DNA of 26,176 nt, from the IMG/VR virus record IMGVR_UViG_3300047545_000482, positions 1-26,176 of that record, one strand, 5' to 3'. This document shows positions 1,950 through 24,519 of the stretch, in pieces (the stretch's first letter is position 1; the number at the start of each line of letters is the position of its first letter). The position numbers were made by a program, and so were the translations under genes. Under the pieces are notes generated by a model that was not told where the DNA came from, did not search any database, and was given only the letters and a program-made list of their open reading frames with translations. The DNA comes from a virus (lineage: Duplodnaviria > Caudoviricetes).

Positions 1950-2465
1950 TTAACTCCACATCAATCGACGATTCGCTACTACCCACGCGAGGTACTTGTC
2001 CTCCTTCTCGTCGAAGAGCCCCTGAAGGCGGTCGACCTCTCCATAACTCTGTGTATATGAAGCTCTTGTAACAGTCGTGAAATCGAGGTCTTTAATCGGT
2101 GGATACGCCGCGTCAATCTCTTTGAGCGCAATTGCTCTGTCGGTCCTTGCCCAAAGGTATACCTCTTTAAGCATACTTGCTTCCTTTCGCGCTGGATGTT
2201 CGTGGCCTTGATGTTCCCACGTCTCCAACCCCTTTTCCCGTTCGACGTAACTGATTACGGCGGCATACAACACGTTCTCAATACAGGTATCAATATCTAC
2301 CCATGTGCGGGGAATTGCGGCGCGCAGTTCGGAGTGCTTTGGCCAGAAAACGGGCTTGACGTGGTCATACCACAGATAGTAGACCCAAGTAAAGCGCAGA
2401 CGGTCGCGCAGCCAATAGGAAAGGCCGAAGGTGCGAATGTCGTTGATATGATCTCGTGAACTCAT
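1950..2465 (-). CDS. hypothetical phage protein
   Basis: 171-aa ORF; 4-nt spacer after the upstream stop. Confidence 0.75.
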   Translation of the reverse strand: MSSRDHINDIRTFGLSYWLRDRLRFTWVYYLWYDHVKPVFWPKHSELRAAIPRTWVDIDTCIENVLYAAVISYVEREKGLETWEHQGHEHPARKEASMLKEVYLWARTDRAIALKEIDAAYPPIKDLDFTTVTRASYTQSYGEVDRLQGLFDEKEDKYLAWVVANRRLMWS

Positions 2466-2469
2466 GGGT

Positions 2470-2646
2470 TTAACTCCTCCACCGATAATGCGGCCCCATA
2501 GCGTCTCGCCTATCTAGTTCCTCCATACGCGCATCATATTTAGCTCGCGACTCTTCAAGACGCAGGTCTTCGGCCTCGTTGAGTTCGTAATCAGAGTCGG
2601 ATTCAATAAGATTGATGGGCTTAGGAATGTCGGGGTCTTGGTTCAT
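2470..2646 (-). CDS. small acidic hypothetical protein, probably leaderless
   Basis: ATG 2646 lies 6 nt downstream of a -10 box; the TTG start in the track falls in the promoter region. Confidence 0.6.
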   Translation of the reverse strand: MNQDPDIPKPINLIESDSDYELNEAEDLRLEESRAKYDARMEELDRRDAMGPHYRWRS

Positions 2647-2652
2647 AAAAGA

Positions 2653-2681
2653 ATAATGGAATAAATGACCTTCTTTGTCAA
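2653..2681 (-). promoter_or_regulatory. sigma70-type promoter (leaderless geometry)
   Basis: TTGACA(2681-2676)-17 nt-CATTAT(2658-2653)-6 nt-ATG. Confidence 0.6.
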
Positions 2682-2691
2682 ACAATTTATT

Positions 2692-3006
2692 CTATTGGGG
2701 CAAGTAATTTGCTAGCACCGCCGCGACCTTTTGACCGGCTAATGTGGGAGATACGGAAAGACCGTGCGGCAATTCATGGATTGAGAACTGCGAGCGAGTG
2801 CCGTCGCGCATACGAATAATGATCGTGGCGTAGGCAGATGTGCGAGGAATAGAAATCTTTGGCACCGTATAGCCCTCGACGTAAACGTCCTTTCGTGCGG
2901 CAATCTTTTCAAGCCTCCTCTGTTGGTCTAACTTTCTATTTTTGGAACGCCACCGATTGTAACTCTGCCACTTGCGGGCAGTTGGAGAAGTTAGTGATTT
3001 TTGCAT
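2692..3006 (-). CDS. hypothetical basic protein
   Basis: 104-aa ORF, Arg/Lys-rich N-terminus. Confidence 0.7.
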   Translation of the reverse strand: MQKSLTSPTARKWQSYNRWRSKNRKLDQQRRLEKIAARKDVYVEGYTVPKISIPRTSAYATIIIRMRDGTRSQFSIHELPHGLSVSPTLAGQKVAAVLANYLPQ

Positions 3007-3024
3007 GATGGGTTAATGTCTTTG

Positions 3025-3276
3025 TTAGGCCAAGTGGTCGCCAGAGAGGACGAGGGTCATGCGGGTTTTCACCTGTCCGTTTGCCAGCGTTGCCGTCCCG
3101 CCGTCGTCATCTGAGATTTCGATCACGCGCAGGTCCGCCGTCTCGACGGGCAGAATTACGCAGCCGTCAGATTCGAGCGGGTGCTTGTAGGTGTCTTTGC
3201 TGATGCAGACCGAGCGACGGCCTGCGCCTTTGGCGATGAGTTCGCCAGTGATTTTGTGGAGTTGTTTGATTGTCAT
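3025..3276 (-). CDS. hypothetical protein in cassette 1
   Basis: MTIKQLHK...; stop TAA lies in the core site (GCC TAA C); alternative in-frame ATG at 3321 inside attC1. Confidence 0.7.
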   Translation of the reverse strand: MTIKQLHKITGELIAKGAGRRSVCISKDTYKHPLESDGCVILPVETADLRVIEISDDDGGTATLANGQVKTRMTLVLSGDHLA

Positions 3277-3287
3277 GTGAAATTCGG

Positions 3288-3401
3288 GCCTAACCAAGCG
3301 GCCACAGCGAACGCTCACCATCCGTCCTTTTTCGTTCGTCTGTTCTCCGCTCGGTCATGGTTGGTTATTCGGGTGAGCGCCGCTGATCCGCGATGTTCTG
3401 C
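3288..3401 (+). repeat. attC-like recombination site 1 (114 bp)
   Basis: AAC CAA GCGG CCA CAGCG AA CGCTCACC ... GGTGAGCG C CGCTG AT CCGC GAT GTT: paired blocks separated by asymmetric unpaired bases. Confidence 0.8.
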
Positions 3402-3829
3402 AAAAGATCAGCCACCGCATCGCGGGGCGTTTTCCCGAAGCCCGCGACCGACTCTTGGAGGTTTACGAAGCCGTCGAGTGTCGCGCACCATGCGTCTCCG
3501 TCACGGAATACGTTCACCTGCGTTTCCCACCAGTCGGGAGCCGGTCCCGCGCTGCACGCGAATTGGTTGGCGCTGTGGCAGCAGTAGTCGTCATGGCACG
3601 TCCAACCGCAGCCGTAGGTCGATGTCGGAGTGCCGCAGTTAGGGCACGGTCCGCGCATCCAGTGGCTCGGCGCATGATTCCACGAGTCGAAGCGGATGGG
3701 TGTTCCGTAGCTCCATTGGTGCTTGCCGGTGTCGTAGGTTTTACGCGGAACACGGAGCAGAACCAAGTGCCCAGAGCCAACAGGCGCGGGCGTCACGTTT
3801 TCGGTCGGTTGATTTGCATTCATGGTCAT
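3365..3829 (-). CDS. Cys/His-rich hypothetical protein (possible Zn-binding) in cassette 2
   Basis: CPNCG...CGWTCHDDYCCH; starts inside attC2 and stops inside attC1. Confidence 0.7.
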   Translation of the reverse strand: MTMNANQPTENVTPAPVGSGHLVLLRVPRKTYDTGKHQWSYGTPIRFDSWNHAPSHWMRGPCPNCGTPTSTYGCGWTCHDDYCCHSANQFACSAGPAPDWWETQVNVFRDGDAWCATLDGFVNLQESVAGFGKTPRDAVADLLQNIADQRRSPE

Positions 3830-3871
3830 AGAGTTTTCTGCCGCGCCTGCGGCTCATGCACGACGTTCTCT
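3757..3871 (+). repeat. attC-like recombination site 2 (115 bp)
   Basis: AAC CAA GTGC CCA GAGCC AA CAGGCGCGG ... CCGCGCCTG C GGCTC AT GCAC GAC GTT: same architecture as attC1 with compensatory substitutions. Confidence 0.8.
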
Positions 3872-4140
3872 TCCGGCTGTCGCTGAATCGGGATTCCCGC
3901 GCGTTGGCGGAGTTCATCAGCGCAGAGTAGATAGGTCGCTGAGCGCACAGAGTTGGCTAGTGCCAGATCATCGTCACCGGCCCTACGCGCTTCGATATTG
4001 CGCTGGTTGCATTTTAGCGAGCGCGTGAGCCATTCCTGCGCCAATGCTTCCGCCTCAACGACCGGAAGAGAACAAGTCGCCCCAGCATCAACGACCTTAG
4101 TGGGGCCGCGAGATTCGGGCGGGCTGAGTTCGCTCGACAT
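3826..4140 (-). CDS. hypothetical protein in cassette 3
   Basis: Start ATG 4140 (MSSELSPP) or 4197, both inside attC3; its TGA overlaps the ATG of the next gene in the attC2 loop. Confidence 0.65.
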   Translation of the reverse strand: MSSELSPPESRGPTKVVDAGATCSLPVVEAEALAQEWLTRSLKCNQRNIEARRAGDDDLALANSVRSATYLLCADELRQRAGIPIQRQPEENVVHEPQARQKTL

Positions 4141-4254
4141 TGGATGAATCGTGATGGTGGCTTGGGTGCTGGAGGTTTGTGGCGTGTCAAAGTGCATTGG
4201 ATTTTCGAGGGTTAAAGTTTCACGTTCTGGTCGTGGCTGATCTCCACGTTAGCC
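4067..4254 (+). repeat. attC-like recombination site 3 (188 bp, degenerate or hybrid)
   Basis: AGAGAAC...CAGC ATC AA CGACC ... GGTCG T GGCTG ATCTCCAC GTTAGCC; weaker pairing and a long central region. Confidence 0.55.
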
Positions 4255-4440
4255 AAGAGCGTCCTCGGCGCGACGGCGCGCGTCTGTGTCTCCGGACGCG
4301 ATGATTTCCAGTGCCGCGCGCATCCGTGCGTTTTCGCGTTCAATTTCGCGCGCGTGAATCTCAAGCGCGGAGTATTCCGATGTGACCGCGTGGTCGGGGC
4401 GTATCGTGATCGCGTCAGTTCTGGGTGTGTCGGTATTCAT
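4249..4440 (-). CDS. small phage protein (TPRTDA-motif, coiled-coil-like)
   Basis: MNTDTPRTDA...HAREIERENARMRAALEIIA; stop TAA lies in the GTTAGCC core. Confidence 0.75.
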   Translation of the reverse strand: MNTDTPRTDAITIRPDHAVTSEYSALEIHAREIERENARMRAALEIIASGDTDARRRAEDALG

Positions 4441-4465
4441 AAGAGTAGGCGTTCATCTAAGTAAG

Positions 4466-4494
4466 AGAGTCTACTTAATGTCCTCTTTTGTCAA
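4466..4494 (-). promoter_or_regulatory. probable promoter facing the cassette array
   Basis: TCTTGACAAAAGAGG is identical to the promoter at 14496-14510; -10 ambiguous (TAGACT at 15-nt or GACTCT at 17-nt spacing). Confidence 0.5.
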
Positions 4495-4609
4495 GACTAA
4501 ATCTAAAAAATTTCCCTAGCTACCGACGTCTCGGTCATTCACGCGTTATTTCGCGATAAAACCGTAATAGGAAAAGCTCCTAACAGAGGAACTTCTTGGA
4601 TAAGATTGT

Positions 4610-4647
4610 AAAAAATGTGCTCTCGTTTTAGCATAGTTATCGAGAGC
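4610..4647 (-). terminator. possible intrinsic terminator downstream of the tmRNA
   Basis: GCTCTCG/CGAGAGC stem with a 15-nt loop, followed by ACATTTTTT. Confidence 0.4.
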
Positions 4648-4705
4648 GGGGCTACGAATTAACGAAGAGAATCAAAAGAACTCCGCCATGCGGCCCCAAG
4701 TAAAG

Positions 4706-5102
4706 TGGTGGAGGGCGAGAAGGGTTTCACTCCTCGTGTTTGAATCTTATCCTATCGCCTTCTCCACGCTCAGATAATAATTCGTCTATTTCTCCAACCG
4801 CCCCAAATTATTTCAATAAAGCGGTTGCCCGACTCGTCTGCTATCCGGCTCAAATTACGAGTATGTTGAACCATTGCCCCTATTGGTTGATGAGGCTAGT
4901 GACTCAGCCCCATGCAGTCGCGGTTAGGCGAAAGCAAGACCCATCGCGGGCTCAGGAAGCGCGAACGCCGCCCGGACTTTAGCAATGAGGTTTTTGATAT
5001 ACGATTTAGCGTTTATCGATTACCCGATGGATTATAGCGAGATCAGGTGCTCGCTGCGTGCTAACGATAGGGGATCGACTCAAGTCGAAAATGCTGCCCC
5101 CC
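4706..5102 (-). ncRNA. ssrA: tmRNA (transfer-messenger RNA), 397 nt
   Basis: 5' GGGGGGC pairs with 3' GCCCUCC-ACCA including G3.U70; UUCGAC near the 5' end; helix 2 pairs TTGAGTC/GATTCAA, CCTATCG/CGATAGG, CACGC/GCGTG; PK1-like AGCGAG/CTCGCT and CCTGAT/ATCGGG; ATAAAC-GCT resume context; tag ORF ending LAFA*. Confidence 0.93.
4924..5010 (-). other. tmRNA tag reading frame AKSYIKNLIAKVRAAFALPEPAMGLAFA*
   Basis: Translated by hand from resume codon GCT (5010) to TAA (4924): 28 codons plus stop. Confidence 0.85.
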
Positions 5103-5128
5103 GATGATGTAAAAGAACAAAAAAAGAG

Positions 5129-5283
5129 TCTCCAATTGCGCGGAATCTCGTCCGCGCTCAAAGACCTGCTATCGCCGGGTCAAACGATTTCCCGTTATTT
5201 CGGTCGGCACTTGGCCGCTTACTAAGGGATCGGGAACAAACGAACGCATTGAAATGGGTCCGCGTATTAAGTGTAACTGGAGA
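5129..5283 (-). ncRNA. candidate structured RNA upstream of the tmRNA
   Basis: 9-bp closing stem TCTCCAGTT/AATTGGAGA enclosing several hairpins, followed by a U-rich tract. Confidence 0.45.
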
Positions 5284-5320
5284 AAAGAACGTGAGGATTG
5301 CCTCAACTAAAGATACACCG

Positions 5321-5349
5321 ATATTAAGCAGATTGAACGGTCGTGTCAA
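5321..5349 (-). promoter_or_regulatory. sigma70-type promoter for the non-coding RNA region
   Basis: TTGACA(5349-5344)-17 nt-TAATAT(5326-5321); no ATG at the usual distance. Confidence 0.65.
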
Positions 5350-5551
5350 TCTTTTTCATTGCCTCATTCAAGCGATATTGGTCAAGAATCGCGGGAATAA
5401 GAGCTTGCCAGCGCGGAATCGCGTCAATCGGACCATTGAGTCCGGGCATAGGCTTAGCGAGTTTAAGCTGTTCTTCGGCATCGAGGCCCTTGAGGAGGCA
5501 GTAATGGCGAGCGGCGGCTTCGAGTTGAGAGGCTGAGGGATTATTTTGCAT
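5324..5551 (-). CDS. hypothetical protein
   Basis: 75-aa ORF in the minus-strand run. Confidence 0.65.
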   Translation of the reverse strand: MQNNPSASQLEAAARHYCLLKGLDAEEQLKLAKPMPGLNGPIDAIPRWQALIPAILDQYRLNEAMKKIDTTVQSA

Positions 5552-19131: not shown

Positions 19132-20670
19132 TTATAGACTGAGGGGGAGAGTCAAGAGGGAACTGGAATTGCCTACAATTTCCGGTCGTTCTGTAAGAAA
19201 GTCCATAGGCGAAGACTGGTTTATGGGCGCTTCTCCAGCAATTAATTTTCGCAACAGAGTGGTCACAAGATCTGGAGCCTTATTTATCTCAGACTCCCAA
19301 ATGAAGTATATTTCGTAACCCGTTTTTCGGGCTAATTTGTTTTTAGCTACGTCTCTCTTTTGTCCCTTGATCTGCTCGGCCCTCGGCTCGGGGAAAACCC
19401 GGGGATGTCCATGCCAGTAATCTCCGTTGCACTCAACAAGTAGGTTGAAGTCTGGCAAGTAGAAGTCATATACACGCTTTTCGACTTTGAGGTGCTGTTC
19501 AAATCGAATCCCTAGTTTATCCAATATGCGTTTAAAGCGACGCTCTAGCGAGCTTTCTTCGTATCTAGAATCTCTGGATTCCCAACCCCATTTTTTCATG
19601 ATACTCCGAATGGGGTTAGTACTAATCTTTAGGATGGTGGCAATCTCCTCCACGGATAGGAATTGGACGTTGTACAGGTCGTGGATTCTCTCCTTGTTGA
19701 CTTCTAGGATGGCCTTATTCTGGTCTCTAATTTTATAGGAAGGAGCTAATCCAGCCTCTCTCAAAATCTGAAGAATAATCCTTTTGTGAACGCCTATATC
19801 TTTGGATATCTTAATAGAACTGTCACCGGCATTGTACCTTATAACGATATGCTCCTTGTTCTGTTCTACTAATGACGAGAAATTCTCGCGAGGACTTTTA
19901 ATACCTTGACGCTTGAGAGCAGCATTGATTGTTGGTGGGCTTACTCCGTAATAATCCGCCGTATCGGTAATGCTTTTGAGTTCGAGATACTTCTGAGCCA
20001 CCTCTGCTTCGGTCGCGCCAGTTTCGTCAACCAACTTTGAAGTCCGTTTAACAATCGGTATGCCCCAAACCACTAAACGATCTTTGATTGATTGAGGGGT
20101 GATATCGTACTTTGTACCTATATATTGAAAGGAATGCCCCTTTTCGTACAAGCTAATAATGTCAGCTTTAGCGTCGTCTACGTGCGTTAGGGTGTTACCT
20201 CGTACCTTAACGTTATTGCGAGCAAGCAACCCAAAAACGGCACCTCTGCCCATCTTAAAATGCCTAGCGGTTTTCTCAACATACCCGCATCTGAGGTAAT
20301 GCGCTATCACCTCCTGCTCGTCTATTCCCATTTTGACAGATTGAAATGCATTACCCCTCCTTCGTTTGACGTTTTGAGAACGCATAACTCTCTCAATAGT
20401 TGCTCTGCTTATTGAGAACTGCTCGCCTATAGCCTTAAAACTCAAGTTCTCATTGTACAGCGTAACCATTCGTTGTATATCTTCGGAAGAAAACTCTATA
20501 GGCAAAAACTCTTTCCTCCCGCGCAGTATAATCCCCTTGCGTTTGACTATGCGTGTTACCTGATTCGGAGAAACACTACACTTGACAGCAATCTCTCTAA
20601 CTAGTAGAGAACTGTTAGTATACAACTCAACCACCTCACTAATCTTCTCCGAAGTCACCGTCGCCATCAA
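19132..20670 (-). CDS. multi-HTH protein with C-terminal Vsr/DUF559-like endonuclease (homing-endonuclease-like)
   Basis: Tandem I..LY..G.S...IA......I...L...G repeats; SSLE...YDFY...VECNGDYWHG...RD..K...GY....WE. Confidence 0.8.
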   Translation of the reverse strand: MMATVTSEKISEVVELYTNSSLLVREIAVKCSVSPNQVTRIVKRKGIILRGRKEFLPIEFSSEDIQRMVTLYNENLSFKAIGEQFSISRATIERVMRSQNVKRRRGNAFQSVKMGIDEQEVIAHYLRCGYVEKTARHFKMGRGAVFGLLARNNVKVRGNTLTHVDDAKADIISLYEKGHSFQYIGTKYDITPQSIKDRLVVWGIPIVKRTSKLVDETGATEAEVAQKYLELKSITDTADYYGVSPPTINAALKRQGIKSPRENFSSLVEQNKEHIVIRYNAGDSSIKISKDIGVHKRIILQILREAGLAPSYKIRDQNKAILEVNKERIHDLYNVQFLSVEEIATILKISTNPIRSIMKKWGWESRDSRYEESSLERRFKRILDKLGIRFEQHLKVEKRVYDFYLPDFNLLVECNGDYWHGHPRVFPEPRAEQIKGQKRDVAKNKLARKTGYEIYFIWESEINKAPDLVTTLLRKLIAGEAPINQSSPMDFLTERPEIVGNSSSLLTLPLSL

Positions 20671-21905
20671 TCAATCGGTTTAGAATAGAAAATGGCCTCA
20701 AGACCGTGTTCTTTGTTATAAAGTAGCCCCTGCGACGTGCGAATAGTCCCTACATAACCCTGAGAAAAGTGCCATTGGTCGGGGCCGCATAAGGCGTTAC
20801 AAGTGCGGACCTTTACTCCATGTAACTCCTCTGTTGCCTCTATGTGTCGATGCCCCGTCAGCCATTCGTAGTACTTGTATTGTGAGACGGACGCTTGATT
20901 CTCCCTCATCATTATTAAGGGCAGATCTTTAAGCTTCTCGCGATGGCCGTGTACTAGCCCCAAAAGCACCTTACCAAACGCGTGATACTTTCGGCTCTTA
21001 GGCTCGTTATCCACCGACACATTCTTGTGATTACGAAACCATGCGGACAGATACGCCCCCAGAAAATAGCTGAGTTGTTCGTCGTGATTTCCGGGAATAA
21101 CGATGATCTTGACCTCAAAACGCGCCCCAAGCGTCTCTGCCGTTTCCGTGAGCAACGTGCAACCCTCCGTAAAGGTCTTAGCCAGACGACCATCCGAATC
21201 AACATAGGTTCCGGCTGTGGTTGTGGACTTATTCGAGTCGGCCTGAAAATAATCCGAACCTACTATCATCAAAATCTGCGCGACCCTGTCCTGTGGAACC
21301 TTTTCCATGAGGTCTTTAACCGCGTCTTTGTAAACCCGCTTGGCAATATTGATATCGTAATCAGCGCCAGATTCCTTTTCCCATGCCAACTTGGAGAGGT
21401 GTAAATCTTGGATATTCAACACGTAACAACAGTCGGCTTGACCGGGTTTCACTTTCGCATAAGAGAATGACTTCGGCGCGTTCTTCTCGGCCTGTTGGGC
21501 GAAGTCGGAGAGCAGTAGGTTGATATCTATAGTCTTATCCCTCTCAAACGACGTCCGCCACACGAATGCCCCGCTCTTATTCTGGCTCACGGCGAAGGAC
21601 TTAACGCGCCAAGTTTTTTCATCCACTTTACAGAGCTTAACTACATCGTCAAGTTCTTGAACATCAAGAGTCTTAACCTCTGTCTCCATCGTATTATCCA
21701 TGGTTTTCTTGGTCACCGAAGGCACAAACGGTGCGGCGGGCGGCGGCGTATAATTACCCGCGATATAAGTAGCATACGCACTGCGCGCCGCTCGCTCACT
21801 AAGTTTAAGGCGTTTTCCCAATGCTTTGACGCCATCGGCGCGAGGCAGTTTGGATGTCAGGTTCTTTAGTTCGCTAATCAGTTCTGGCGTATAGTTGGTA
21901 GGCAT
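20667..21905 (-). CDS. calcineurin-like metallophosphoesterase
   Basis: DLH, GSD, GNHD, HGH, GHRH motifs. Confidence 0.9.
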   Translation of the reverse strand: MPTNYTPELISELKNLTSKLPRADGVKALGKRLKLSERAARSAYATYIAGNYTPPPAAPFVPSVTKKTMDNTMETEVKTLDVQELDDVVKLCKVDEKTWRVKSFAVSQNKSGAFVWRTSFERDKTIDINLLLSDFAQQAEKNAPKSFSYAKVKPGQADCCYVLNIQDLHLSKLAWEKESGADYDINIAKRVYKDAVKDLMEKVPQDRVAQILMIVGSDYFQADSNKSTTTAGTYVDSDGRLAKTFTEGCTLLTETAETLGARFEVKIIVIPGNHDEQLSYFLGAYLSAWFRNHKNVSVDNEPKSRKYHAFGKVLLGLVHGHREKLKDLPLIMMRENQASVSQYKYYEWLTGHRHIEATEELHGVKVRTCNALCGPDQWHFSQGYVGTIRTSQGLLYNKEHGLEAIFYSKPID

Positions 21906-22019
21906 ATTGTCTAGGTTAAATAAATAAATTTGCGGCTCCTATTCGGCTGCCGGGTTATGTAGCATACACGGGAATGGCGGCTGCACGGCTGCCGTGGAGG
22001 TGGGTATTAGAAAAGGTAA

Positions 22020-22436
22020 TCACAAAATCACTTCCCATGTTTCTTTAAACCATTGGGGAGAAAGCTTACTTAAATCTTCTGGCCGAATACGAACCATTTT
22101 AAATCCTGATGCCTCTGCAAGTTTGTCCTTAAGAATGTCTCGCTTAATCTGCGCTTTATAGTCTTCGCGACTCTTGTGGAAAAATCCCTCGATAAAGTTC
22201 TGGTGCTGATTGCCGTCAAATTCGCAAATCACTTTCTTAGAGACATTTACATAGTCGTAGGACATGCGTGTACCCACGCAAGGGACTTGGCAACAGACTA
22301 CATCGTGCCTCCAATAAGGATAGAGGAAGTCGGCCAACTGGGAAGATTGCTCAGAATCTTGATCATCATCCCAGTCGATGAGGTATTTATGCATCGGCAC
22401 ATCCTTGAACTTGCCCGAGGGAGTCTTCCACTTCAT
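22020..22436 (-). CDS. Vsr/DUF559-like endonuclease
   Basis: YDY...EFDGNQH...RD..K...GFKMVRI. Confidence 0.75.
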   Translation of the reverse strand: MKWKTPSGKFKDVPMHKYLIDWDDDQDSEQSSQLADFLYPYWRHDVVCCQVPCVGTRMSYDYVNVSKKVICEFDGNQHQNFIEGFFHKSREDYKAQIKRDILKDKLAEASGFKMVRIRPEDLSKLSPQWFKETWEVIL

Positions 22437-23371
22437 AGAGAATCCTCTTTCATCACACGTTTTGATACGTTGGGTTGATCTTCTAAGAGATAGGCAACGA
22501 ATTTATCTTGGTAATTCTGCGCGAATTTGAGGAGCCCATCTATATACGCCCTAGCGATGAATGAAGAGCGAATAGGTTCGTCGACAAGTATGTAACGCAA
22601 GCCTTTCGTCGCGCAGAAAACTTCCGCCGCCTCTTTCTTTGCAACGATTAATGGGCTAGCATGTAGTTTTGTGGGCTTAAGTTCGATTAGCTGATTGTTG
22701 ACCACGAAATCGGGGCGGTAGGTGCGTTCCCTGCCGTCAAGCATATAAGGAATGGTGTACTCCTTTCTCTCTGCCGTTTTCCATTCCTTACCCTCTCTAT
22801 CCATACGAATCATGAAAGTAGCTTCCCGTAAACTCCTGAAGTAGTGTCCTTTATACCATCCTTTCCAGCCGTTACCTGAGCCTTGAGGGGTGGGTTTACC
22901 ATACATGGGGTTTCCAGAACCAGAGGATCTCTCACTGAAGTTCGCAATAACCCCCTTCATCTTCTGCTCCGCTTCTTGCGGAGACATCTTTCTCTGCCAA
23001 ACTTCCCTAAAGTACCGCCTCTTCCAAACCAAGCGCGTCCACCCTTTTTGAGCAAACAGCTTAAATAGGCTATTTTTGCCTACCCCATACTTGATCGCCA
23101 TCTCCTTAATATCTAGATCGGAATATACATAATCGTGCTCCAATTCATCTATTCTCGAAAGATATTCTCTTCCCGTTCTACATTGAACCCCCTCTTTTTT
23201 TAGTTCTTTTTTTACGGTATTGGCGCTTATCCCCATCTTTAGTGCAACTCTATCAAGGCTTTTTGAGGTCTCGTACTCTTGTTGCATATACGCTCGTTCG
23301 GCCTCGGAAAGCACAATCCGCTTGGTTTTGTTGCCCTTAGGCCTAGGAAGAGTAGGTGGACAAACAACCAT
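22433..23371 (-). CDS. HTH + NUMOD3-like + TnsA-like PD-(D/E)XK endonuclease (homing-endonuclease-like)
   Basis: N-terminal HTH, SGSGNPMYGK, FRSLRE, YRPDF...IELKP. Confidence 0.75.
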   Translation of the reverse strand: MVVCPPTLPRPKGNKTKRIVLSEAERAYMQQEYETSKSLDRVALKMGISANTVKKELKKEGVQCRTGREYLSRIDELEHDYVYSDLDIKEMAIKYGVGKNSLFKLFAQKGWTRLVWKRRYFREVWQRKMSPQEAEQKMKGVIANFSERSSGSGNPMYGKPTPQGSGNGWKGWYKGHYFRSLREATFMIRMDREGKEWKTAERKEYTIPYMLDGRERTYRPDFVVNNQLIELKPTKLHASPLIVAKKEAAEVFCATKGLRYILVDEPIRSSFIARAYIDGLLKFAQNYQDKFVAYLLEDQPNVSKRVMKEDSL

Positions 23372-24519
23372 TACGATCCTCCAATCATCTTTTGGAACTT
23401 GGTAAAGAGGTGCTTAGAAACGCCGGGATTGTCCTCAAGATACTTGCGCCAATTGTCAAGACCCTGAATTTGGACGGGGACTTCTCCGTGCCCGGCGTCA
23501 GCAAGTTCCTTACGAATCGACTCGTCTATCGCCAACCAACTCCCCTTCTTCTTCAAGAGGTCAAACATGAGAAGAGCGTCAACGATCTCGTACTCAGTCC
23601 AAACGGACTTGCCTTCTGATCGACCGTATTTGACGGGATATTCAACTGTAATGCCGCTCTTCTCGTTCGGGCTTTTCTTGATAAGAATCTTAACTTTATG
23701 GCCAACGATGGGGTTGGTAAGACGATCTGGCTTCTCCGAGGGCTTTTCGAGAATAAGATCGCTTTGAGACTTGGGGCGAAAGATAAAGATGTGGTTACCC
23801 CAATGGTCCTTAGCATTACCGCCGCCACCGGGGCCTGAGCGAGGAGCAGTAGGACTATATGGGTCAAGTTGAATATTGGCGGAAACCTGTCCGGCTAATG
23901 CACAAATATGTCCGCGCTTAGCCATAGCATTAGCCATCTTTTGTAGAAATTGCTTGGTCAGCAAGGGACCTCCAGCAACCTTATTTGCTGTACCCACGTC
24001 CTTTACGATATCATCGCGAAGGGACATCCCGTCCATCGAATCAATAAAGAAGAAGTATTTACGCTTAGCCTCGTTTTCAACAATCAGACGACGAAGAATA
24101 TTGAGAGTAAACTCCCACACATTGGTTTCGAGAACAAAACAGGTGCCGTCAACCCACTCCTCGGCCTTGAATACGAATTTAATACCTGTGCGTTCCTGCA
24201 TCTCGGGAGAGAGGCGACCCTCCGCTTTCACATATAGAGCGCGAGCATCGGGCATCGTGTCTAACATATTCTTGATACAGGAAAGTGTGAACGAGGTTTT
24301 GCCAGATTCAAACGGCCCAGATACGACAAAAACACCGGGATTAACGCCCCCCTTAGTTTCGATATCCATAGAGAGGCTTCCAGTAGATACCTTATAATAG
24401 ACTTCTTCTTCGAAGTTGAGGTGGTCCTCTTTATTACGGGTCAGTTCGCTTCCGAGAATAGACTCGGGAGTAATCTTAGGCTCTTCATTTTCTTTAGCAG
24501 GTTTTTTGATAGGTGGCAT
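23371..24519 (-). CDS. RecA/UvsX-like recombinase
   Basis: STGSLSMD, GPFESGKTS, AE, FIDS, GQV, GGNA, KGSW. Confidence 0.92.
   Translation of the reverse strand: MPPIKKPAKENEEPKITPESILGSELTRNKEDHLNFEEEVYYKVSTGSLSMDIETKGGVNPGVFVVSGPFESGKTSFTLSCIKNMLDTMPDARALYVKAEGRLSPEMQERTGIKFVFKAEEWVDGTCFVLETNVWEFTLNILRRLIVENEAKRKYFFFIDSMDGMSLRDDIVKDVGTANKVAGGPLLTKQFLQKMANAMAKRGHICALAGQVSANIQLDPYSPTAPRSGPGGGGNAKDHWGNHIFIFRPKSQSDLILEKPSEKPDRLTNPIVGHKVKILIKKSPNEKSGITVEYPVKYGRSEGKSVWTEYEIVDALLMFDLLKKKGSWLAIDESIRKELADAGHGEVPVQIQGLDNWRKYLEDNPGVSKHLFTKFQKMIGGS

Follow-up and report, generated by a model that had tools for sequence, protein, structure and literature searches.

An Integron-Type Cassette Array with Antisense Genes in a Phage Genome Record

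Integron-type gene cassettes are found in a phage record in an inverted format. The DNA analysed here, called the window, is the whole of the linear virus record IMGVR_UViG_3300047545_000482 (G000; 26,176 bp). The array in this record consists of three attC-bounded cassettes, with genes running antisense to the attC sites and mostly starting or stopping in attC loops. An integron integrase (IntI) from the host, a co-infecting phage or an unsequenced part of the phage genome is the likely agent by which these cassettes were inserted and exchanged at G|TT. Integrons are commonly regarded as belonging to bacteria, and the origin of new cassettes is a standing problem. The portion consulted of PMC8352920 treats the mechanism of cassette genesis as native and unspecified.

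The record is estimated to be 18% complete, and a full genome of about 145 kb would follow from this estimate. Its gene content includes DNA polymerase III alpha, a primase, a DnaB-like helicase and a UvsX-like protein, and of the annotated genes the long ones are on the minus strand. Annotated phages gave no match to G000. Between 6400 and 12585, the DNA polymerase III alpha gene appears split into PHP, exonuclease and catalytic parts, interleaved with two LAGLIDADG/HNH endonuclease genes, and additional HNH-type genes are found at 19132-23371.

Table 1. Features of the array and its surroundings (window coordinates). The R1 scores of attC1 and attC2 are not independent, since part of the training sites were found with the attC1/attC2 pattern.
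Feature	Position	Strand	Remarks
Gene, 104 aa	2692..3006	-	Directly after the array, at the place of intI in related phages
First crossover, G3024|T3025	3015..3030	+	Candidate attI-like simple site, AAT-N6-GTT at 3015-3026
Cassette 1, 371 bp	3025..3395	+	8-bp offset complement
Cassette 2, 470 bp	3396..3865	+	7-bp offset complement
Cassette 3, 383 bp	3866..4248	+	12-bp offset complement
attC1, 114 bp	3288..3401	+	72.2 bits, model R1; loop holds ORF2 stop and putative leader start
attC2, 115 bp	3757..3871	+	79.9 bits, R1; loop holds overlapping ORF3 stop and ORF2 start
attC3, 188 bp	4067..4254	+	Long, degenerate; 21.9 bits, E 0.0019, R1
ORF1, 83 aa	3025..3276	-	Start in cassette body, stop codon in leading core
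Putative leader ORF, 22 codons	3290..3358	-	From attC1 loop through left arm to stop in inverse core
ORF2, 154 aa, Cys-rich	3365..3829	-	Starts in attC2 loop, runs through left arm, ends in attC1 loop
ORF3, 123 aa	3826..4197	-	Starts in attC3 loop, ends in attC2 loop, overlaps ORF2 start
Phage gene, 63 aa	4249..4440	-	GC 0.61; stop codon within last core
UvsX-like gene	23371-24519		

Structure of the Cassette Array

A sequence-only reading of this DNA had proposed an integron-like array delimited by four G|TT cores, and these are present at 3024, 3395, 3865 and 4248. Its central argument, that each leading core is the exact reverse complement of its own inverse core and not of the core closing the site in the linear array, was borne out: the complements have the lengths given in Table 1, against just 3, 5 and 3 bp with the closing core for cassettes 1, 2 and 3. 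Complementarity to the own inverse core, as would be left by a circular intermediate, is thus a property of all three units. The bona fide arrays of G070 and G005 are alike in this respect, with an offset complement of 7 bp or more in every cassette scored (28 of 28 and 10 of 10).

With three attC sites in less than 1 kb and no integrase in the 26,176 bp of a record that is 18% complete, the array is by definition a CALIN, a class for which IntegronFinder 2 takes at least two attC sites close together, according to the part of its description consulted (bioRxiv 2022.02.28.482270). It is a CALIN of an inverted phage format, differing from canonical cassettes in one of the traits tested, namely gene orientation.

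The array had also been described as clearly richer in GC than its flanks. This holds for the composition (0.59 versus 0.47 elsewhere) and less well for the limits, the GC-rich island ending at 4440, beyond the array. The short phage gene in between, at 4249-4440, is possibly a fourth cassette that has lost its attC. A homologous protein, P0050, agrees with it at the C-terminus and is extended at the N-terminus by a stretch that, at the protein level only, resembles an attC arm. The DNA encoding P0050 was not found, the loci returned by that search carry no attC match, and no match to the attC model R1 lies to the right of the gene.

The attC Sites and Their Family

Sites were searched with R1, a covariance model built from 21 sites, all from outside the window, which stands in for the IntegronFinder/HattCI model. 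In the window it finds the three sites, all on one strand, and the next match has an E value of 0.34. Our own site detector called two sites (attC3 was missed). In 100 shuffled sequences it called 0.13 sites on average, and two of these sequences reached two; a chance origin of the sites was rejected on this control and the R1 scores. With respect to the consensus boxes R''(RYYYAAC) and R'(GTTRRRY), AAC and GTT are present in all three sites and the full consensus at some cores only (GCCTAAC, GTTAGGC, GTTAGCC).

The unpaired bases shared by attC1 and attC2, and the paired blocks that covary between them, had been read as a common hairpin, and they do fold as claimed, in the circular form. The attC fold is predicted for attC2 (z about -2.1) and, in the circular form only, for attC1, whose linear form misfolds. 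Both hairpins then display an L box, extra-helical bases, an unpaired central spacer and a variable terminal structure. The central spacer of attC sites usually has five bases; those of attC1 and attC2 are one base longer. For attC3, which the model aligns as an attC, no attC fold is predicted (z 0.24). The refuting condition named in the earlier reading, no attC-model hit and no attC-like fold, is not fulfilled by the array, as R1 finds all three sites. The length of attC3 is not unique, as sites of 188-189 bp also occur in the G005 array.

The bottom strand, which is the one that would fold and recombine as usual, is not favoured energetically: bottom and top strands of the three sites reach -22.2/-22.2, -26.0/-26.1 and -18.7/-22.6 kcal/mol. 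In the sections consulted of Nivina et al. 2016 (PMC5027507), greater bottom-strand stability is an average tendency of attCs and no strict rule; the R boxes, extra-helical bases, central spacer and terminal structure are the features treated there, and a crossover at R'' is considered possible at a low rate. The missing bias, the misfolding of linear attC1 and the fold of attC3 nevertheless count against an IntI-driven array.

Chromosomal integrons in the G006 family (the record title of G006 being Opitutaceae) carry attC sites of the type seen in the window. As evidence independent of the window pattern, R1 has matches in 39 of 61 genomes of this family, and in G070, G052 and G018 they form long arrays next to intI. 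Judged from the site family only, the host of the phage is likely to fall within the same group. Within the attC family, both partners vary in 14 of 21 pairs, a number reached by none of 500 shuffles in a control that ignores relatedness. Simple patterns taken from the arms were also used: of the stretches hit by those of the attC1 and attC2 left arms, real sites were present in 6 of 12 from viruses and in 2 of 9 from genomes, and the right-arm pattern hit 59 stretches, with detector calls in eight, of which the convincing ones are five contigs already known.

The hairpins might instead be substrates of another recombinase, or RNA elements that couple the translation of neighbouring genes, with an attC resemblance and nothing more. 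The gene junctions inside the loops and the absence of a bottom-strand energy bias would suit such elements. We regard this as very improbable, because R1 also finds chromosomal integron sites beside intI, the recombinases adjoining related phage arrays are IntIs by profile and by residues, and no Rfam family was found.

Inverted Layout of the Cassette Genes

The anatomy of a cassette array was thus confirmed, but the earlier account made no mention of the orientation of the genes. Usual cassettes contain a gene that is sense to attC and enclosed in the cassette; here, all three genes are antisense, on the minus strand, and ORF2 and ORF3 extend into the neighbouring cassette and end in its attC loop.

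The start of ORF1 at 3276 agrees with 14 of 15 homologues, which begin at the same Met, the fifteenth having this Met after a short extension; an alternative start at 3321 was rejected on these homologue starts. ORF1 belongs to no Pfam or PHROG family. The putative leader ORF ends 13 nt before it. ORF2 has 23 homologues, in which N-termini and tails switch at the cores, and three proteins share with it just the first 23 aa, their remaining bodies being unrelated. It gives a weak DUF317 match, under the cut-off. The seven homologues of ORF3 are 38-78% identical in alignment and keep SLP and EEN, the residues encoded by the terminal inverted repeats.

Start and stop codons built into attC loops are a design common to many phage records. 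Of 49 phage-like sites, 45 have an antisense start inside or just beyond them, 36 have an antisense stop within them or at the core, and 34 have both. In 106 chromosomal sites from five arrays, the corresponding counts are 26, 21 and 6. Conversely, a sense stop was seen at 4 of the 49 phage-like sites versus 59 of the 106 chromosomal ones, where it falls at the inverse core. Fisher values for the two layouts, 1e-16 and 6e-9, overstate the difference, since the sites are not independent. The 49 sites, among which are short metagenome contigs of unproven phage identity, comprise 40 of 47 R1 matches, the three of the window and six from the loci L005, L007 and L009. The matches dropped from the 47 were four chromosomal sites of L099, one cut-off site, one reverse duplicate and one weak site of L112.

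The start codons in the loops would be used for translation. Of 28 read-throughs, 27 have the core AAC as an in-frame codon, so that an exchange at G|TT, as computed for the window array, would keep the frame and alter a short C-terminal tail only; the stop-start junction of the operon would be preserved.

Exchange of Neighbours at the Cores

Variation in cassette content among relatives and breaks of homology at the G|TT positions had been predicted, and both were encountered: units of the array occur with other neighbours in public contigs, and the homologues break at the cores. Neighbours are exchanged at the G|TT cores, the altered junctions lying at G|TT or a few bases away. In run X3, from another study, one contig is identical to 3296-3399 and continues into a body like that of cassette 3, with cassette 2 absent. 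Run X4, also from another study, has attC1 joined to another body at 3398, a different sequence upstream of cassette 2 at 3395, and the left arm of attC2 joined to another body at 3764. Near-identical copies of attC2 sit on other bodies in three further loci (L002, L006 and L007).

Run X2 is probably the source sample of the window. There the array has a depth of 19.4 and two upstream neighbours at 3021-3024, the window flank (14.6) and a sequence resembling an attC right arm (5.5). This second neighbour is suggestive, as the contig has 65 letters with 30 of them on the window, under the bar set for a bridge. Runs X1 and X2 show more branch points at 2411-2503 and 4449-4542, a sign that strains with different array flanks live together. 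Further loose ends fall inside arms or flanks, e.g., at 3302, 3334, 4081 and 4098. Run X10 contributed no contig to the window, and runs covering the window by a small share only were excluded as evidence of habitat. The cassette circle junctions that had been proposed as a check were absent from all assembled contigs of seven runs.

The same array could be a fixed relic of a phage integron, passed from phage to phage today through nothing but homologous or illegitimate recombination in similar arms, aided by the UvsX-like recombinase. The window contig lacks an integrase and encodes such a recombinase, the folds of attC1 and attC3 are weak, and identical arms carry different bodies at the AAC side, a pattern that ordinary bottom-strand crossover does not explain. 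A fixed relic is nonetheless unlikely in our estimation, given that loose ends gather on the G|TT cores or a few bases from them (3021, 3395, 3398, 3399, 3864), that one sample contains the second upstream neighbour as well, with roughly a quarter of the array's depth, and that the pairs in the attC family covary. Insertion or exchange by IntI is the preferred reading.

Integrases and attI-Like Junctions in Related Records

No tyrosine recombinase had been noticed beside the array, and indeed no PF00589 or PF13495 match exists in the 26,176 bp. The absence of an integrase from the window and from the complete phage G004 counts against the IntI model, and so does the presence of an N-terminal piece only in another complete phage, G001. 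Related phages do possess an intact IntI gene next to arrays of this kind. Five viral records with the same sites were compared: a full IntI is encoded in G005 and G008, the N-terminal piece in G001 and none in G004 and G009. Both G005 and G008 encode portal and terminase or capsid genes, and their IntIs have the IntI insertion and the catalytic residues.

A search with these two proteins gave 10 loci, five of them new and tested, and seven viral records now have an IntI above the TIGR02249 cut-off (G005, G008 and five others, whose phage identity is the label of the collection and two of which are proviruses). Three of the 10 loci (L263, L264 and L266) have no cassettes beside the integrase gene, and no R1 match was found in the integrase region of the virus Rctr41k. 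In a protein tree of 36 sequences, which includes 26 of 30 fetched chromosomal loci and leaves out L266, the phage IntIs fall into two groups on long branches, separate from the 27 chromosomal proteins. The five-member group has a support of 100/100, and the topology is compatible with a single origin as well as with several. In the G006 family, 54 of 121 genomes have an IntI above the cut-off.

In G005, the integron (L255 6691-13888) sits between HNH and small terminase genes; 11 attC sites lie on the array side of intI and one beyond it, this outlying site following the small terminase gene. The G005 cassettes include a gene of the PAPS-reductase family. G001 is a complete phage of 69.9 kb in which the N-terminal part of IntI (L256 477-962) adjoins five attC sites of the inverted format.

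An attI-like junction directly precedes the intI start in six of the seven IntI-encoding viral records, L267 being the seventh, and in G001; in these records the cassette genes are on the intI strand and read into intI. AAT stands 4-6 nt before GTT in 11 of 11 other first-cassette junctions (seven viral and four chromosomal; one further was left out), against 46 of 786 GTT in the window (6%). The AAT in front of the first core makes the 3024 junction a suggestive candidate for an attI-like site, and new cassettes would enter there or at an attC.

The gene at 2692-3006 occupies the place that intI has in the related phages. It has no family match and no related locus, and nothing usable was obtained for it from the Atlas. 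Its interpretation as an integrase remnant was rejected, as the window is devoid of the two recombinase profiles. No close relative with an empty site was found in viral contigs with the flank gene, ORF2 alone or the DNA polymerase as queries.

Predicted Transcription of the Array

The phage's own leftward transcription would read the cassette genes, and no Pc promoter would then be needed. A Pc reading from attI into the array would be on the plus strand, and no promoter-like site was found on this strand in 2400-5400; the genes face attI. The promoter scan gave two sites versus 2.3 expected by chance. Upstream of the array, about 880 bp at 4440-5320 are free of ORFs above 80 aa and of ORFs resembling phage genes, and a minus-strand sigma-70-like site is found at 5349, such sites being no more frequent than by chance. 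The RNA library X5 contributed one contig of 259 letters over 3105-3363, which does not establish transcription.

Comparison with Known Systems

The notion that an attC array in a phage is new does not hold, as such arrays have already been published (PMC9892861). Qi et al. 2023 (PMC9892861) obtained from 10,705 phages 17 attC clusters without integrase, three complete integrons and one lone integrase, and five of six tested phage attC sites recombined with IntI1. The window resembles their CALINs in having at least two attC sites without an integrase in a phage. According to our own mapping, the two sites of TJE1 in that study are sense to their cassettes, unlike those of the window, and in P12002L attC1 is antisense to the flanking genes, with attC2 sense to gp35. 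The one site that failed to recombine was this P12002L attC1, which counts against the IntI model. The parts of Qi et al. consulted note the divergent P12002L sites and describe no inverted cassettes translated through the arms, and the complete integrons of that study are fragments from host chromosomes or of class 1, with no integrase groups peculiar to phages.

With the sedentary chromosomal integrons of the G006 family, the window shares the attC family, the offset complementarity of the cores and, at the candidate attI-like site, the AAT before GTT. In these integrons intI lies on the strand opposite the attC top strand, as in the related phages. The chromosomal genes are mostly sense to attC, whereas those of the window are antisense, an orientation that is also that of intI in the records possessing one. 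One cassette cluster on a G006 chromosome (L099 3230-6065) has an attI-like site and no intI, and is situated between sugar transferase and HAD hydrolase genes.

IntI can also insert cassettes at GWT (attG) sites outside integrons, leading to small clusters without integrase, the SALINs (bioRxiv 10.1101/2022.09.11.507474). The sections consulted of that preprint do not treat the orientation of genes within cassettes, and the 3024 junction has an attI-like feature beyond GWT. Top-strand recombination, as presented in the portion consulted of PMC5027507, inverts a whole cassette relative to its array; in the window, the attCs are co-directed and the gene is inverted inside the cassette. A literature search mostly confined to journals outside subscription yielded nothing on phage cassettes that are inverted and translated through the arms of attC, nor on IntI groups specific to phages.

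Origin of the Cassettes

Ordinary host cassettes from a chromosomal integron might have been inserted at a secondary GTT (attG) and kept because they fitted the phage operon by chance. The window sites are indeed of the same family as the chromosomal arrays, and insertion of cassettes by IntI at GWT sites across genomes has been reported in the part consulted of bioRxiv 2022.09.11.507474. We give this origin very little credence. Chromosomal cassettes are mostly sense, the ORF2 family has plain members in viral contigs too, the ORF3 family was not found in 301 genomes of the class (in a search that had no positive control), and many phage records share the design with start and stop codons in the loops. 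The original suggestion, that the phage gains or shuffles accessory genes through integron machinery, is kept as far as the integron type of the cassettes is concerned, but the cargo looks phage-like and its inverted format phage-adapted, which does not correspond to ordinary host cassettes.

The ORF2 family was followed at the DNA level through 37 loci. About ten have cassette ends where ORF2 has them, and six of these, some of them redundant, show the 8-bp complement. L112 and L113 have different cassette ends, with complements of 10 and 9 bp as read by eye. Most of the remaining loci, in viral contigs, are plain genes with their own ATG and no arms. R1 found no site in any of the 17 plain loci scored (six more were left out) and sites in 7 of 11 loci of the cassette type. 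In L108, an ORF2 homologue has both cores changed (GTC/GAC) and its own start, and it is possibly a decayed cassette with its attC lost. The coexistence of plain and cassette forms could come from capture as well as from attC loss.

The chromosomal integron of G052 contains, among mostly sense cassettes, two adjacent inverted cassettes of the phage type with long attC sites (L333 14588-15329), one of them weakly similar to the window gene at 4249-4440 (E 0.002). The phage and chromosomal pools can therefore meet. A bolder and rather doubtful proposal is that phages run an inverted integron system of their own with phage-specific IntI lineages, and that they make cassettes: an existing attC would be copied around an ordinary phage gene, repeatedly and with different end points, and the products would then spread to unrelated phages and to host integrons. 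The ORF2 family, with its plain form and at least three kinds of ends, might then represent a before-and-after series.

Conclusions

If this account is true, phages keep a pool of cassettes in their own format and with their own integrases, in which small genes would be swapped without breaking the operon. The plain and cassette forms of one gene family provide concrete sequences for testing how cassettes are generated. For annotation, it means that cassette proteins carry attC-coded N-termini and tails outside their domains.
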